Source: a virus
Lineage: Duplodnaviria; Heunggongvirae; Uroviricota; Caudoviricetes
Virus record (IMG/VR): IMGVR_UViG_2660238548_000023
Length of the DNA: 10,865 nucleotides
Direction: 5' to 3' (one strand)
The translations under genes were made by a program, and so were the position numbers. Numbering within the stretch: position 1 is the stretch's first letter; the number at the start of each line of letters is the position of its first letter. Shown here piece after piece: positions 1 to 5,964 of the stretch. The notes below the pieces were generated by a model. The model made no database searches. It had not been told where the DNA came from and was given only the letters and a program-made list of their open reading frames with translations.

Positions 1-39
1 ATGCGTATAGGACAAAATCGTTTTTTGGGGGCTATACAC

Positions 40-1352: not shown

Positions 1353-2057
1353 ATGCCAATTGTGGAAAACATTCCTGACTTATCCCACTGGCGAACAGTA
1401 CAGGAGTTTTCTATCACCCAAGCCGCTTTATTGTTGGCCGGAATTGATCCTTATGATTACCCTACTCTTGAACATGCCAGAGATTATAAACATGAACGTT
1501 GGAAAATGGCATGGGGGTTGGCTAATGGAATGGTTACTGCAATTCGTCGTGGTGTATTAACTCCTGTGTGGATTGAATATTATCCTTTGTGGGAAGTACA
1601 AAGAGCATCCGGCACCCCCCGTACAGAGATACCAGATCGTTTGAAGAAAATATCCATGGACGAAACAATTATTACCCGTCATTCTTTACTTGAATGGGTA
1701 AGAAATGAGAGGGTCGATTATGTAAGACCTCCTCGCTCTATATCGGATAAGGAGATTAAGCCATCTAACCAATCAGTAATAATTGATGCTGAATCGCGCG
1801 TGATTAATTCTGAAGAAACAGTATTGCTGACTTATGGTCATAAGAGCGAAGGTCTTGAATATGTAGAAGACGCAATAAGAGAACTTTGGGCAACATATGA
1901 TCCAGATAATCAACAAACAGCCCCTACAAGAAATGATGTTGTTGAATACCTGAAAGGCAGGGGAGCGGGGCAGAACATGGCCGAGGCTGTAAACCTGATA
2001 CTACGCCCCACTGGCTTGCAGCAAGTTGGAAGAAGGAAAAGAAAAACAAATAGTTAA
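1353..2057 (+). CDS. hypothetical protein; AT-rich orphan cargo gene between int and alpA
   Basis: Long ORF (track 1338-2057, TTG start). Preferred start is ATG 1353, preceded by RBS aagggggag at 1341-1349. The region is visibly more AT-rich than the flanking genes. No recognisable domain; basic C-terminal tail GRRKRKTNS. Confidence 0.6.
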   Translation: MPIVENIPDLSHWRTVQEFSITQAALLLAGIDPYDYPTLEHARDYKHERWKMAWGLANGMVTAIRRGVLTPVWIEYYPLWEVQRASGTPRTEIPDRLKKISMDETIITRHSLLEWVRNERVDYVRPPRSISDKEIKPSNQSVIIDAESRVINSEETVLLTYGHKSEGLEYVEDAIRELWATYDPDNQQTAPTRNDVVEYLKGRGAGQNMAEAVNLILRPTGLQQVGRRKRKTNS

Positions 2058-2249
2058 ATAGTGCCCACCCTTCGTAAAAAAGGTGGCACTATTTGCTCAA
2101 AACTCTTTTGTTTATGGCGAGAAATCATAGTTAAGCGTGCGTTTTCTTTGCTTATTGATACTGGAATGGTGGCAGCATTATTAAAATAATAGTGGGCACT
2201 ATTCCATTGAAATAGTACCCACCATTAAAAATAGTACCCACCTATAAAT
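2057..2249. promoter_or_regulatory. operator-like repeat array and putative alpA promoter
   Basis: About six copies of a 13-bp motif AATAGT(G/A)CCCACC in both orientations: 2057-2069, 2082-2094 (inverted), 2168-2182 (degenerate), 2211-2223 and 2230-2243, plus a 16-bp palindrome aatagtgggcactatt at 2188-2203. The -10-like tataaat at 2243-2249 overlaps the last copy, upstream of alpA. Confidence 0.4.
2060..2098 (+). terminator. putative intrinsic terminator after the orphan gene
   Basis: Inverted repeat agtgcccacc (2060-2069) / ggtggcact (2082-2090) gives a roughly 9-bp stem with one bulged C and an 11-nt loop, followed by the T-rich atttgctc. The two arms are inverted copies of the AATAGTRCCCACC motif. 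Confidence 0.35.
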
Positions 2250-2304
2250 ATGTTTTCCTTTTATGCATCATTGTAGACGGTTATAGACGTTACGAGGATT
2301 GAAT

Positions 2305-2502
2305 ATGTCAAATAACTTACTTCGTCTTTCTGATGTTATGCGCCGTACTGGTTACGGTCGCGCTTGGATTTATCGCCTGATCAGCCTGGGGCGCTTCCCT
2401 AAACCTGTAAAAATTGGTTCCCGCTCCGTGGCTTTTATTGAAAGTGAAGTCGACGAATGGATTAACCAGCGTATTGATGCTTCTCGCAACAACGCCGCGT
2501 AA
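2305..2502 (+). CDS. alpA: AlpA-family transcriptional regulator / excisionase-like protein
   Basis: Small ORF with the AlpA-like pattern LLRLSDVMRRTGYGRAWIYRLISLGRFPKPVKIGSRSVAFIESEVDEWI. ATG at 2305 has RBS gagga at 2294-2298; the ORF track starts at TTG 2299. Confidence 0.85.
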   Translation: MSNNLLRLSDVMRRTGYGRAWIYRLISLGRFPKPVKIGSRSVAFIESEVDEWINQRIDASRNNAA

Positions 2503-2568: not shown

Positions 2569-3288
2569 ATGAAACGTCCGAATATGCCCGTACAGGGGCA
2601 GGGCTTCATTCAGCCTGAAATCAGCCAGAACGATATATTGATTCGCCACAAAGCAGAGTCGCGTATTGATTCCCGCGTTATTTCTGAGCGAGCAGGAATA
2701 CAACACGAAAGTATCATTGCGACGATTAAATCTCATCAATCCAGATTGCGCGAGCTTGGCTCACTGCCTCGCCAGTCAGTCAAGGAATTAACCTATTTGA
2801 AATCGGGAAAATCTGGCCGCAAGCGCGGTCGTCCTGAAATTAGTTATTTGCTGAATGAGCTACAGCTTGACTATCTGTTACGCGTTATCCGTGGGCGTGA
2901 CGCAGAACGTATCAACCAGTTCAAGCTGGATGTTACGAAGGCATTCGCGAAGCATCGCGCCGCTGAACCAGTCCGTCGCGAATATCTGCCAGGCTATCAC
3001 GAAAGCCGTGACGGGCTTAAAGCACTGGGCGCAGAACGTCACCATTACATCAACCTTGCCCGCACTGAAAATCGCTTCGCTGGGCTGGCTGTAGGCGAGC
3101 GTCAGAGCGCGGGAGAGCAACAGTTAGGCTTACTGATAGTCATGCAGAAAATCGAGCAGGCAGCATTTAACGAGGCGATACAGAACGGCATGACACCGAC
3201 CGAAGCGGTGCGGGAAGTTGCTCGCCGCATGGAGACGTTCGCCAGCCTGATGACGTCAGCGCCGTCTCTGGGGGTGAATCATGCGTAA
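2569..3288 (+). CDS. Rha-family phage regulatory protein (putative)
   Basis: 239-aa ORF; RBS aggag at 2558-2562, 6 nt before ATG 2569. The N-terminal region (ILIRHKAESRIDSRVISERAGIQHESIIATIKSH) resembles the Rha domain. Its stop overlaps the next start (ATG 3281, TAA 3286-3288). Confidence 0.6.
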   Translation: MKRPNMPVQGQGFIQPEISQNDILIRHKAESRIDSRVISERAGIQHESIIATIKSHQSRLRELGSLPRQSVKELTYLKSGKSGRKRGRPEISYLLNELQLDYLLRVIRGRDAERINQFKLDVTKAFAKHRAAEPVRREYLPGYHESRDGLKALGAERHHYINLARTENRFAGLAVGERQSAGEQQLGLLIVMQKIEQAAFNEAIQNGMTPTEAVREVARRMETFASLMTSAPSLGVNHA

Positions 3289-4804
3289 TTATGATTTCGC
3301 CGCAATTATTCCGGTATCACCTGGCATTATTGGCAGATATGAAACGGGCGTTGTCAGCGCACGCGCACTGCATAAAGCGCTCGGTGTAGGCCGTGATTTC
3401 ACCACCTGGATTAAAGGGCGTATTGAGGAATACGGATTTAAAAAAGGTGTGGATTTTGAGGCTGTAGAAAATTTGTACTTTGATTCCCAGAAACGGGGGA
3501 GCCAAAGTGTAAATATTGAACAGTTTGATTCTGGCTGGCACGTCGCCTGGGAGAACGTGAACATGCCTGACATCCGCAACGCTGCCGCCCTGTACATCGA
3601 TACTGCGGATAAGTTCGCACAGGTGAGCATCAACCATGCTGATTACATGCGCCATATCGTGAGCCATTTCGCCGCTGAGCGCATGAAACACGTTAAGCAT
3701 TATCAGAAGGAGGCTTTATCAAATTATCGCGCTGGTGGCCCTGTACGGCGTGAATATCCGCATGATGCAGGAATGGCAGGCAAAACAAAGGCGACCACGA
3801 AAGGGTCGCCAGTGGAGATAAAGGAAATCAAGCGCATCACCAACTATGCCATGAGTGTAGCTGGTGGACAAGGCTATCAGCCAGGCGGTCGGTTTTTAGT
3901 GGCTTTTAACCGCCGTGGGTATTTCTCGACAAAAGCCTCAAGGGCAAATCGTGTTGGCCTGGTGAGTGGCAGTGGATTAAGTAACAACCTCCTTTGCCGT
4001 TGTGCTTTTTCGCGCTGTCGCTCAAGTATGGATAATGCGATTTCCTGTAGTTCTTCATTTGTCATTGTCTGTACCCGTAAAGCGGTGCGCTGTAGTACCT
4101 CATATCACAGCGCAGGTATTTTTTATGGTTGTAATTTGCGTGATGATTCAGGTTGCTTTGCGACACACTGCATAAACATAAATAACGTGATGTTATTATG
4201 TGCTTTCAAAGAAAACGCAGGTATTTTTCGCACAAACTTTTCTCGCAACACATCCGACCACTTAAGCAAAAAAGCGGCATATACTGAAGCTATCCCTTAT
4301 AAAACGGGGATCGGGCGTAGGAACCCGTTTAACTGTAAGGCGATAAATGACGCCAGAAGCGTCTTTTTTTCTGCCAGCGCTTTACGCCATATCAATGGCG
4401 TTGTGTATTGTGCGTACTCGTGCACCATCCAGTCATTTCACGAGTTGCATTTTGCACAGCGCCACCAGCAAACAATGGTGATGCTGGCGGGGCTACCGAA
4501 AGGTAGGCCGGAGTCCTTACAGTCCGGTATTCCTACCCCCGCCAGTGTCACCGCCCATTGTGAGCGTAGGAACTCCTGCGGTGACGTTATTCATCACTGT
4601 AAGGAGGCTGCCAACATGGCTACTACCCCTACCCTCGTACATTCTCAGACTGCCTTTATCTGGCGCTTTATCATCTTTGGCGCGTCAGAATCCCAAATCA
4701 TCCACGTAACCGCCTGGACGGAACGCGAAGCGCGTAACCGTTGCCCGTCAGGTTGCGTTGCTGTATTCGCCGCCCGTATCCGTCAGGAGGCATCACATGG
4801 ATAA
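3281..4804 (+). CDS. AntA-domain antirepressor-like protein; 3' extent uncertain
   Basis: N-terminus (VVSARALHKALGVGRDFTTWIKGRIEEYGFKKGVDF) matches the AntA antirepressor N-domain pattern. The frame has no stop until 4804, but after about codon 230 (near 3960) the translation is Cys/Ser-rich and non-protein-like, and it runs through a hairpin plus T7 terminator (4349-4370), the structured leader and the in-frame Icd-like ORF. The true C-terminus is probably well upstream of 4804. Confidence 0.4.
   Translation: MRNYDFAAIIPVSPGIIGRYETGVVSARALHKALGVGRDFTTWIKGRIEEYGFKKGVDFEAVENLYFDSQKRGSQSVNIEQFDSGWHVAWENVNMPDIRNAAALYIDTADKFAQVSINHADYMRHIVSHFAAERMKHVKHYQKEALSNYRAGGPVRREYPHDAGMAGKTKATTKGSPVEIKEIKRITNYAMSVAGGQGYQPGGRFLVAFNRRGYFSTKASRANRVGLVSGSGLSNNLLCRCAFSRCRSSMDNAISCSSSFVIVCTRKAVRCSTSYHSAGIFYGCNLRDDSGCFATHCININNVMLLCAFKENAGIFRTNFSRNTSDHLSKKAAYTEAIPYKTGIGRRNPFNCKAINDARSVFFSASALRHINGVVYCAYSCTIQSFHELHFAQRHQQTMVMLAGLPKGRPESLQSGIPTPASVTAHCERRNSCGDVIHHCKEAANMATTPTLVHSQTAFIWRFIIFGASESQIIHVTAWTEREARNRCPSGCVAVFAARIRQEASHG
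4349..4370 (+). terminator. intrinsic terminator-like hairpin plus T7
   Basis: gacgc (4349-4353), loop cagaa, gcgtc (4359-4363), then ttttttt (4364-4370). It lies about 10 nt after the upstream copy of actgtaagg (4332-4340). Confidence 0.4.
4501..4592 (+). ncRNA. candidate c4/CI-type antisense immunity RNA (structured leader upstream of icd-like ORF)
   Basis: Hairpin 1: ggtagg (4502-4507) pairs with cctacc (4532-4537), inner stem ccgg/ccgg (4508-4511 / 4524-4527), 12-nt loop agtccttacagt. Loop bases 4514-4523 (tccttacagt) are exactly complementary to 4596-4605 (actgtaagga), which overlaps the SD of the Icd-like ORF; 9 of them also match 4332-4340. Hairpin 2: gtcaccgc (4547-4554) pairs with gcggtgac (4578-4585). 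Confidence 0.35.
4616..4804 (+). CDS. host cell division inhibitor Icd-like small protein (putative)
   Basis: 62-aa ORF (MATTPTLVHSQTAFIWRFIIFGASESQIIHVTAWTEREARNRCPSGCVAVFAARIRQEASHG). Strong SD aaggagg at 4601-4607, 8 nt before ATG 4616. Position directly after a c4-like structured leader matches the P1 c4-icd arrangement. It is in frame with the upstream long ORF. Confidence 0.4.
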   Translation: MATTPTLVHSQTAFIWRFIIFGASESQIIHVTAWTEREARNRCPSGCVAVFAARIRQEASHG

Positions 4805-5225
4805 AAACATGTTGATCGCCTCTTCTTTCGGGCTGTATGATGCCGAAGTCGCCCACATGGCGACCGGGTTTAGCAGCCTGAATCAGATAGCGGACAGCCG
4901 CTTACATTCCGATATGCGGTTTTTTTGTGTCCGTAAGCCTACCCATACCCGCATTATGGCGGGGCGTAACGGGGGAGCCTTTGCGCTCGCTGGTTCCTAT
5001 CTGGCCAGTCTGCTAACCCCGTTACGTCTCGCCACCATGTTTAGCAGCGTAGTAGCGAGACTCCTTAATCAACAGATAGGAGCCTTTCACATGGCTGTAT
5101 CCGCACGCACATCTGATTTTTGTCGCCCGTATCCGTCAGGAGGTGACTCATGCTTAAAACCTTCCGCGTCTTTTCCCGTGCTGTTAACAAGCGCGGCCAT
5201 ACCATCGGCATCACACAGAACGTGA
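4797..5225 (+). CDS. hypothetical ORF overlapping the second structured-leader copy
   Basis: ATG 4797 lies 6 nt after the first 20-bp RBS module cgcccgtatccgtcaggagg (4771-4790) and overlaps the icd-like stop (TAA 4802-4804). The translation is Ala/Ser/Leu-rich and low-complexity, and its 3' half covers a second divergent copy of the leader, so it may not encode a real protein. Confidence 0.3.
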   Translation: MDKNMLIASSFGLYDAEVAHMATGFSSLNQIADSRLHSDMRFFCVRKPTHTRIMAGRNGGAFALAGSYLASLLTPLRLATMFSSVVARLLNQQIGAFHMAVSARTSDFCRPYPSGGDSCLKPSASFPVLLTSAAIPSASHRT

Positions 5226-5841: not shown

Positions 5842-5964
5842 ATGGCATCAAAAAATACTGGCTTAACTGCCAGTAGCAAAACTCACCCCGAATTTATGTG
5901 CGGGGATATTTACCGCAATGAATACGGTAGCCACATGACGATGATCAGCAGAGGTAAGAAATGA
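5842..5964 (+). CDS. putative 40-aa micro-ORF translationally coupled to the primase
   Basis: Manually found ATG 5842 with RBS caggag at 5826-5831; the TGA stop (5962-5964) overlaps the primase ATG (5961) as ATGA. Below the ORF-track length cutoff. Confidence 0.25.
   Translation: MASKNTGLTASSKTHPEFMCGDIYRNEYGSHMTMISRGKK

Follow-up and report, generated by a model that had tools for sequence, protein, structure and literature searches.

AlpA is the master activator of the phage-inducible chromosomal islands (PICIs) of Gram-negative bacteria, and its promoter (P_alpA) is induced by helper phages and boosted by AlpA (PMC6092414, PMC11773190). In two of the Escherichia coli islands, EcCICFT073 and EcCIMP1, the promoter was followed in reporters covering -449 to +50 (PMC11773190), with no cis elements and no repressor reported for it in either study (PMC6092414, PMC11773190), and the 2018 study that defined the Gram-negative PICIs found no repressor and did not identify the helper inducer (PMC6092414). 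Here we analyze a stretch of 10,865 nucleotides (IMG/VR record IMGVR_UViG_2660238548_000023; the window in what follows, always at this full length), which covers the left portion of an integrative element of E. coli that occupies a tRNA-Gly gene adjoining actS/xdhA. It shares with EcCICFT073 and EcCIMP1 the same genes (int, alpA, primase, PerC) and the same promoter position, and its gene set matches that of E. coli PICI-like satellites, EcCIMP1 for example (PMC11773190). Between the gene for a P4-type integrase (int, 1-1254) and the gene for AlpA (alpA, 2305-2502, plus strand; 65-aa product; Pfam Phage_AlpA, E = 2.5e-20), the latter being the proposed regulated gene, lies a plus-strand gene for a 234-aa protein (1353-2057), hypothetical in RefSeq and referred to here as the orphan. 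The int-alpA gene of EcCIMP1, EcCIMP1_002, is unrelated to it (its product is approximately 10% of UvrB in size, i.e., roughly 67 aa). The DNA between the orphan and alpA carries an array of dyad sites whose sequence and register are conserved across genera, and the inheritance of these sites follows the orphan gene rather than alpA or int. The best explanation of the array, to which we would give about an even chance of being correct, is that 2057-2245 holds 16-bp dyad operators for a dimeric DNA-binding protein, most probably the orphan product, that represses P_alpA.

Two classes of described systems are among the closest, the anatomy of the array resembling that of the lambdoid OR/OL operators and its proposed role resembling that of Stl of the Staphylococcus aureus pathogenicity islands (SaPIs), with the locus being a member of neither family. 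Like the CI/Cro operators (OR1-OR3, OL), the array is made of several 16-17 bp imperfect dyads about two helical turns apart (19-24 bp here versus 23-24 bp in lambda), which overlap the -10/-35 positions of the predicted switch promoter and are accompanied by a second cluster at a distance compatible with looping. Unlike in the lambdoid phages, however, the candidate binder possesses neither an HTH_3/CI-like domain nor a match to any other family, its gene is co-directional and upstream, not divergent, with no sites before it and no sign of autoregulation, and the regulated gene encodes an AlpA-type activator rather than Cro. As with Stl, a regulator candidate is encoded by the element itself, next to int, the sites lie on the predicted promoter that would start the satellite cycle, and regulators and sites are diverse between related islands and could thus set helper specificity. 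The stl genes, in contrast, are divergent from the genes they repress and encode recognizable helix-turn-helix (HTH) domains, and derepression by the helper, proven for Stl, is conjectured here. In satellite P4, an AlpA-family gene (vis) is likewise first behind a helper-dependent promoter (P_LL) lacking a -35, but the site of the P2 Ogr and P4 Delta activators at the late promoters is a single TGT-N12-ACA dyad near -55, with no array running into the -10, and the sites described here are not of the Ogr/Delta type.

Dyad sites upstream of alpA and their conservation

The initial annotation of this DNA described repeats of a 13-bp motif, in both orientations, together with a perfect palindrome. 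Exact copies of the 13-mer, AATAGTRCCCACC, are indeed present on the plus strand at 2057-2069, 2211-2223 and 2230-2242, the last two being the direct copies 19 bp apart, ending one base before TATAAAT (2243-2249), that had been pointed out; a copy with one mismatch (2191-2203) and a copy with a 1-bp deletion (2082-2093) are found on the minus strand. The copies are thus real, but motif and palindrome turn out to be one and the same element. As every copy also scores on the opposite strand at a 3-bp offset in a weight-matrix scan, the unit is a 16-bp imperfect dyad, AAT(R)GT(R)-SS-(Y)AC(Y)ATT, which also explains why the copies seemed to lie in both orientations. The palindrome, aatagtgggcactatt (2188-2203), is not perfect, with 7-bp arms surrounding a non-symmetric GG centre (14/16 positions symmetric).

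A symmetrized 16-bp position weight matrix (PWM; consensus AATGGTGGCCACCATT) recognizes four strong sites and one weak site, with one further site apparently decayed and nothing comparable elsewhere in the 10.9 kb. Three of these sites are proximal to alpA: O1 (AATAGTACCCACCTAT, 2230-2245, PWM score 17.5), centred at -67.5 from the alpA ATG; O2 (AATAGTACCCACCATT, 2211-2226, score 19.8), centred at -86.5 and covering the would-be -35 position; and O3 (AATAGTGGGCACTATT, 2188-2203, score 19.8), the best dyad (7+7 arms), centred 109.5 bp upstream of the ATG. The distal pair consists of S1 (AATAGTGCCCACCCTT, 2057-2072, score 19.7), which starts at the final base of the orphan stop codon, and the weak S2 (AAAAGGTGGCACTATT, 2078-2093, score 11.4), with an intact right half-site and a left half displaced by 1 bp. 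The centres are 19 and 23 bp apart in the proximal group (O1-O2-O3) and 21 bp apart in the distal pair, with 110-173 bp, centre to centre, between the distal pair and the proximal sites. The possible decayed site (GAATGGTGGCAGCATT, approximately 2164-2179) falls below the PWM threshold, and in locus L003 a site at the matching distance, centred at -132.5 from the ATG, scores 12.0.

The sites are far beyond what chance would produce. With a leave-window-out matrix, built solely from sites in loci of other genera, the four strong sites all score at least 17 (S1 scores 19.1), all within 2057-2245, and nothing else in the window reaches 12; moreover, none of 200 dinucleotide shuffles contained more than one match of at least 12 per 200 bp. 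Given these two results, chance origin of the repeats was rejected. No further copy of the 13-mer with up to two mismatches is found elsewhere in the homologous 16.4-kb locus L001.

The sites are positioned on a predicted promoter whose -10 hexamer, TATAAA (2243-2248, plus strand), is invariant as TATAAAT in four E. coli variants (alignment A1), TATAAA(T) at 2243-2249 being the sole promoter element conserved among relatives; TATATT, TATTTT or TATTTA occupies the same place in other genera. The last 3 bp of O1 (TAT), in the 16-bp reading, are the first 3 bp of this hexamer. At 17 bp upstream of TATAAA the sequence is CACCAT, matching TTGACA at 0/6 positions, and a TG extension is also absent; because of the missing -35, a consensus promoter scan makes no call here. 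As to the overlap with the -35 and the spacer that was originally proposed, O2 is at the -35 position, O1 takes in the spacer and reaches into the predicted -10, and no actual -35 is present. An alternative promoter, TTGAAA-17-AATAGT (2207-2235), was rejected as it is not conserved elsewhere, whereas TATAAA and its equivalents are. A start predicted near 2255 would place the centres of the proximal sites at about -18, -37 and -60, and those of the distal pair at about -170 and -191.

Eighteen loci with the orphan were examined, and dyad statistics were obtained for 16 non-redundant orphan-to-alpA intergenic regions. The density of dyads in these regions is 11.9/kb, as opposed to 0.18/kb in the other 121 kb of the same loci (an approximately 65-fold difference). 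A dyad centre is found at -67.5 from the alpA ATG in 7/16 loci and at -86.5 in 6/16, with a third site at -110 to -120. Besides the window, sites in the register of O1 (-67.5 to -68.5) occur in L003, L005, L006, L007, L019 and L021, and sites in the register of O2 (-86.5 to -87.5) in L003, L005, L006, L021 and L023, to which a 13-mer scan adds copies in L007 and L010; O3 has counterparts at -110.5 (L021) and at about -120 (L005, L006, L007). A site straight after the orphan stop codon, as S1 is, can be seen in L003, L005, L006, L017, L019 and L021, and a distal pair or triplet, 21-24 bp apart, just past the stop in several loci. Taxonomically, dyads in the same register are present in the int-orphan-alpA modules of Yersinia, Enterobacter, Serratia, Erwinia and Salmonella. 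The -10 abuts or overlaps O1 in E. coli and in the first four of these genera, while in Salmonella (L019) O1 is at the same distance, yet no clear -10 is visible. The loci of Pseudomonas, Spongiibacteraceae and Methylophilaceae retain the GGTG-SS-CACC core with other flanks, and most of the loci without sites in the common register have the core motif. The remaining intergenic DNA cannot be aligned between genera, from which it follows that the dyads are under selection. The motif is thus conserved in related elements, the lack of conservation that the initial annotation had named as grounds for refuting it is not observed, and the persistence of the dyads, in sequence and register, within otherwise diverged DNA supports its proposal of a multi-operator switch on the alpA promoter; the connection to induction of the element is taken from earlier studies of AlpA in the PICIs of E. 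coli (PMC6092414, PMC11773190).

Gene order is constant, as all 18 loci possess the orphan, a spacer of approximately 170-260 bp and an alpA-like gene, usually, not always, with an integrase gene upstream. The order of orphan and alpA is maintained in Pseudomonas aeruginosa (L015), with no adjacent int, and in a Dickeya dadantii-type locus (L017), where two extra genes follow int. In Sodalis ligni (L025), the orphan-to-alpA region has lost its dyads and alpA is unannotated, and two good dyad-like sites (ATTGGTACGTACCGTT and AATGGTACGTACCAAA) are located at 6401-6449, upstream of a 66-aa gene, 2.6 kb downstream.

The protein that goes with the sites

Natural variation among the loci indicates which of the neighboring proteins the sites are associated with. 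Loci L003 and L004 have near-identical intergenic regions, identical alpA and near-identical orphans, and their integrases, 90% and 62% identical to that of the window, use different tRNA sites. Because near-identical intergenic regions accompany divergent integrases with different tRNA targets, the integrase is excluded as the binder. As for AlpA, three natural swaps are available. In L012, an arrangement present in 13 genomes, AlpA is the same as in the window from about residue 7 on, save for one residue, and it is preceded by an unrelated 640-bp region with no orphan and no dyad. In L013, AlpA has the same sequence around GYSKAWIYRL as its counterparts in L005 and L023, two orphan-linked loci; here, a DUF6387 gene replaces the orphan, and there are no dyads. 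The third example is presented by L033, in which AlpA is almost identical to that of L003, the gene in the slot encodes a different, 265-aa protein, and AATGGTG dyads are absent; the region carries instead a different palindrome, ACCCT-N-AGGGT, present in four exact copies and a variant one and arranged as in the window, with a pair 22 bp apart straight after the stop codon, further copies downstream and a final one that abuts a -10-like sequence. Operators therefore change with the upstream gene while AlpA stays the same, and since these swaps keep AlpA, or its DNA-binding region, without the dyads, AlpA is unlikely to be the binder. Conversely, the AlpA-like proteins of L010, L011 and L024 are very divergent and the sites with the GGTG/CACC core remain. 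The list of candidate binders initially proposed, comprising the 1353-2057 protein, AlpA, a Rha-like protein and a helper-phage factor, is thereby narrowed in favor of the first, the sites co-varying with the orphan and not with AlpA or the integrase.

Other loci show further variety in the slot. In L033 (1286-1432, E. coli SY033), the palindromes are at -208, -186, -142, -109 and about -75 from the ATG, and the 265-aa protein holds a coiled-coil stretch. The slot proteins of L035 (251 aa) and L037 (196 aa) share a C-terminal motif, GKDTALK-IAGMAIAL, and their regions before alpA (L035 1329-1484; L037 1277-1443) contain CCCAAATTTGGG-like and TTCCGTGGAA-like repeats; these may be further regulator/operator cassettes. 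In L012 (2835-3476) and L034 (1056-1482), there is no gene between int and alpA, only 430-640 bp of non-coding DNA, which includes a stretch of about 45 bp, resembling repetitive extragenic palindromes, that matches more than 400 E. coli genomes.

The orphan protein itself shows no match to any known family. Its homologues form 57 clusters, all unnamed, of approximately 230-245 aa, in Enterobacterales, Pseudomonas and beyond, and a profile search expands this to 1,131 cluster representatives (50% identity clusters, E <= 0.001), many of them matching via the C-terminal domain only. No match was obtained with the orphan in Pfam, PHROG, NCBIfam or the sequences of PDB, 33 family members compared with Pfam at E <= 10 returned only noise, and no domain was found by Pfam in ten distant members. 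The AlphaFold2 model (mean confidence, pLDDT, 76.8) features a confident, conserved N-terminal alpha/beta domain (residues approximately 1-75 and 105-120), a variable, disordered linker (alignment A2 and the model) and a conserved three-helix bundle at the C-terminus (approximately 163-219), followed by a conserved basic tail, GRRKRK. The by-eye impression that the N-terminal domain might be an HTH_17/AlpA-like fold with insertions received no support from hhalign (probability 0.3%), and no profile or fold similarity of the orphan to HTH_17, MerR or Xis-like proteins was detected. Some relatives share only one of the two domains. In L026, the gene for a relative by the C-terminal domain only is flanked by int and an alpA-like gene, and the inverted repeat found next to it is a different one. 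Relatives by the N-terminal domain only are encoded in phage-like early regions (L027 2030-3470; L028 2068-3420), just after an HTH_3 (Cro/CI-type) gene, in L027 preceding a Rha gene and followed by a GGTGGGTG...CACCCACC repeat. This distribution weakly suggests that the N-terminal domain sets DNA specificity and that the C-terminal domain is a shared effector or sensor.

Proposed repression of alpA and its alternatives

The switch that we propose, with the orphan protein as its repressor, would operate as follows. In the integrated state, the orphan protein would be made and the satellite would be quiescent; its dimers would fill O1-O3 and S1-S2 cooperatively, perhaps with a loop between the distal and the proximal clusters, occluding RNA polymerase at the -10/-35 region of P_alpA and blocking read-through from the upstream genes, and as a result the master activator AlpA would stay off. 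Infection by a helper phage would then relieve or override the block. Hairpins of S1/S2 may additionally help to terminate the upstream transcript. Binding of the dyads by the orphan product, repression as the outcome of binding, specificity residing in the N-terminal domain and relief by the helper are each inferred.

A number of observations weigh against this proposal. The alpA transcription start is a prediction. In four loci (L008, L010, L015, L025), nothing exceeds the threshold of the 16-bp PWM, and they show core variants at most. The orphan points in the same direction as alpA, and upstream of it there are no dyads, just a poor promoter-like match, in contrast to the classical divergent layout of autoregulated repressors. 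The similarity of the L033 slot protein to the orphan C-terminus is marginal (hmmsearch E = 2e-5 with a 7-sequence set; hhalign E = 0.002, probability 12.5%); the argument from co-variation stands without it. Having no -35, P_alpA would need an activator, and the sites near -37 and -60 could serve activation, just as lambda CI activates from OR2. Finally, co-inheritance of sites and orphan could reflect mere physical linkage, and the slot between int and the regulator gene has been described as a place for accessory genes (PMC10085698).

Two alternatives survive best, each of them improbable in our view. In one, the orphan protein would bind the dyads as an activator or a dual regulator, with O2 and O3 (at about -37 and -60) recruiting the polymerase, perhaps upon sensing of a helper signal, and O1 limiting expression at high protein levels, as lambda CI does at PRM, and the lack of a -35 in P_alpA speaks for such an arrangement. 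Three sites at about -18, -37 and -60 also resemble lambda OR3, OR2 and OR1 as placed relative to PRM. Switching on of alpA by the helper, furthermore, is established (PMC6092414). However, as the best-conserved position across genera is that of O1, the site overlapping the -10, the activator version is disfavored; in addition, the centre of O2 is approximately 4 bp off the canonical class II position of -41.5, and if the orphan protein is present in the integrated state, as we propose, simple activation would keep alpA switched on throughout.

In the other, the dyads would be bound by a protein of the helper phage or the host, and the orphan would be unrelated linked cargo, an anti-phage gene in the int-alpA slot, for example. 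The helpers do induce alpA via a factor not named in the published work (PMC6092414, PMC11773190), the slot is reported to hold accessory genes (PMC10085698), and the orphan has no detectable DNA-binding family. On the other hand, the core of the dyad persists in hosts ranging from E. coli to Pseudomonas, Spongiibacteraceae and Methylophilaceae, in every case accompanied by the orphan, and phages of all these hosts would have to share one specificity; the pairing of orphan and alpA is far more stable than is typical of cargo; and a different slot gene, as in L033, brings a different palindrome while AlpA is the same. A scan of 2.9 M viral contigs with a tandem-dyad pattern returned 0 matches and a tblastn search of 50,697 phage records returned no match to the orphan. 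The same pattern matched four metagenome sequences, of which L031 is a true relative that carries both orphan and alpA, two others are a eukaryote-like tandem duplication and a chance match in GC-rich coding sequence, and the fourth (L029) has neither orphan nor alpA and a single PWM match. Such scans, of viral contigs and metagenomes alike, do not bear on whether the dyads ever occur in the absence of the orphan. Binding by a factor of the helper or the host is the less parsimonious option.

That the dyads are AlpA's own auto-activation or loading sites seems more doubtful still. AlpA does activate its own promoter in EcCICFT073 and EcCIMP1 (PMC6092414, PMC11773190), and the AlpA-binding element of P. 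aeruginosa, the target of a protein of the same name, is found in the spacer between -35 and -10, as is O1. That element, GGGACG-N5-GGTA, is asymmetric, occurs as a single copy in target promoters and loads an antiterminator, whereas the sites here are symmetric, of different sequence and do not co-vary with AlpA: they are absent beside near-identical AlpA proteins, or proteins with a near-identical DNA-binding region, in the three swaps, and their core persists where AlpA-like proteins are very divergent (L010, L011, L024). Identity with the AlpA-binding element was rejected on these grounds.

It is highly unlikely that the repeats act chiefly as RNA, by terminating int-orphan transcripts (S1/S2) or by structuring the alpA leader. 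The folding energies of the hairpins that can be formed by S1 and S2 (-18.6 kcal/mol, z = -5.0) and by O3 and O2 (-13.9 kcal/mol, z = -3.3) may be quoted in support, as may the plain G/C hairpin that follows the stop codon in L023 in place of the dyads. Any two copies of a palindrome will pair, however, and thus the hairpins follow from the dyads; no U-tract is present directly past the stems; and O1-O3 are upstream of the predicted start, hence outside the alpA mRNA. In addition, symmetry is a property of every single site, and the register with the -10 is maintained. A pure terminator was rejected, a secondary terminator role for S1/S2 being conceivable as noted above. Use of the repeats as arm-type sites, by the P4-family integrase or in an excision complex, is an idea invited by the Arm-DNA-binding domain of the integrase and by the action of AlpA and Vis-like proteins in excision in P4-like elements; it is scarcely credible and was rejected, as the array is far from att (approximately 2.2 kb from attL, with none near the tRNA and the int promoter in L001), near-identical intergenic regions stand beside integrases of different lineages and tRNA targets (62% and 90% identical to that of the window), arrays are also present without an adjacent int, and dyad symmetry and overlap with a -10 are not features of arm sites.

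A broader scheme may also be considered, which we put forward tentatively and as a whole regard as somewhat more likely to be wrong than right. The variable int-alpA gene, now treated as accessory cargo, would encode cassette-specific master regulators, functional analogues of SaPI Stl, whose members would share a C-terminal domain and have exchangeable N-terminal DNA-binding domains, each with its own palindromic array over P_alpA. Two such cassettes would be the 234-aa orphan with AATGGTG-SS-CACCATT and the L033 protein with ACCCT-N-AGGGT, a shared C-terminal domain being evident in the orphan and the L026 protein but no more than marginal in that of L033. Together, the cassettes would decide which helper phage induces which island. 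For silencing of the Gram-negative islands and for switching on of alpA by the helper, candidate operators, a candidate regulator and natural swaps are now defined. Should the regulator be the upstream protein, it would be the founding member of a new DNA-binding family, of approximately 1,100 clusters, for which, as for the ten distant members scanned, no Pfam model was found, and control of the Gram-negative satellites would follow a repressor-and-sensor scheme like that of the islands of staphylococci. Systems of this kind are familiar, but neither the protein family nor its occurrence in Gram-negative satellites is described in the literature searched, where nothing relevant was found on the motif or on a repressor in Gram-negative PICIs and the PIME preprint offered only a parallel, a LuxR gene next to alpA.

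The alpA leader and the rest of the element

The leader of alpA contains a conserved 5'-untranslated element, TAGACGTTACGAGG (2284-2297, plus strand), which includes the Shine-Dalgarno sequence GAGG (2294-2297), is near-invariant in alignments A1 and A4 and is enriched at the k-mer level. This leader sequence (2271-2297 in alignment A4) is kept even where the operators differ (L033, L035), and it could be an AlpA-responsive part of the promoter or a translational element. A possible 7-bp hairpin drawn by hand in the leader (CUCGUAA...UUACGAG in L005-L007) is paired in 80% of cells, compared to about 40% in slid controls; its covariation is not above that of shuffles, and RNAalifold returned no consensus structure for the leader. 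A hairpin of a G-run and a C-run, GGGAGGGGGGGGTATTCTCCCCC (2513-2535), is located in the gap between alpA and the Rha-like gene, with a folding energy ordinary for its composition (z = -0.87).

The element, which extends past the window end, combines traits of PICIs with P4-like traits. Of the former, it possesses the integrase at one end, by a tRNA att site (adjoining tRNA-Gly in L001), and an AlpA-type regulator followed by a primase-replicase module and, after the latter, an iteron array; no capsid-morphogenesis, terS or rpp packaging genes are found among the open reading frames scanned, which are those of the window, the element continuing beyond it. Helper-driven induction and transfer have been demonstrated in the related EcCIMP1 and EcCICFT073 (PMC6092414, PMC11773190). 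In common with P4, it encodes C4 RNA immunity of the P4/P1 kind (CI/C4 clan), a Phage_ASH (Ash/epsilon) domain and a D5-type, alpha-like primase, and unlike P4 it has no Pfam match in the window to the capsid-hijack genes psu, sid or delta. The longest frame of int, whose product carries the Arm-DNA-binding domain, begins at base 1 (417 aa), and the RefSeq start is 39 bases later (404 aa; window 1-39; L001 3040). Downstream of alpA follow a Rha-like gene (2569-3288), an AntA/Ash/Icd-like open reading frame (3281-4804), a gene for a D5-type primase-helicase (D5_N, Pox_D5; 5961-7784), and genes for SSB (8276-8725), ProQ/FinO (8742-9209) and two PerC proteins (9169-9471 and 10394-10696). The orphan-to-alpA intergenic region of the window is held by only 27 of 5,426 complete E. 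coli genomes.

Rfam models recognize, at 4279-5039, two full-length C4 antisense RNAs (4471-4558, 70.3 bits; 4952-5039, 72.9 bits; gathering score 45), isrK-like RNAs, one at 4292-4369 whose 50 bits just reach the gathering score and one at 4848-4926 with 35 bits, as well as c4 a1/b1 target sites (4279-4331 and 4835-4884). This is a duplicated RNA immunity unit like P1 immI and P4 CI, inside and after the AntA/Ash/Icd frame. With RNA immunity thus located downstream of alpA and rha, the operator array would form a second layer of control upstream. Directly 3' of the primase-helicase gene (7789-8031), at least 12 copies of AA(A/C)(T/G)(A/G)TTCACC / GGTGAACA are present in both orientations, probably the iterons of the replication origin of the element, and these gave spurious matches to miRNA families in Rfam. 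Homologues of the PerC family regulate the pathogenicity island LEE (the locus of enterocyte effacement), which they repress in the case of EcCIMP1, and the presence of such regulators on the element is relevant to the control of virulence genes in enterohaemorrhagic and enteropathogenic E. coli.

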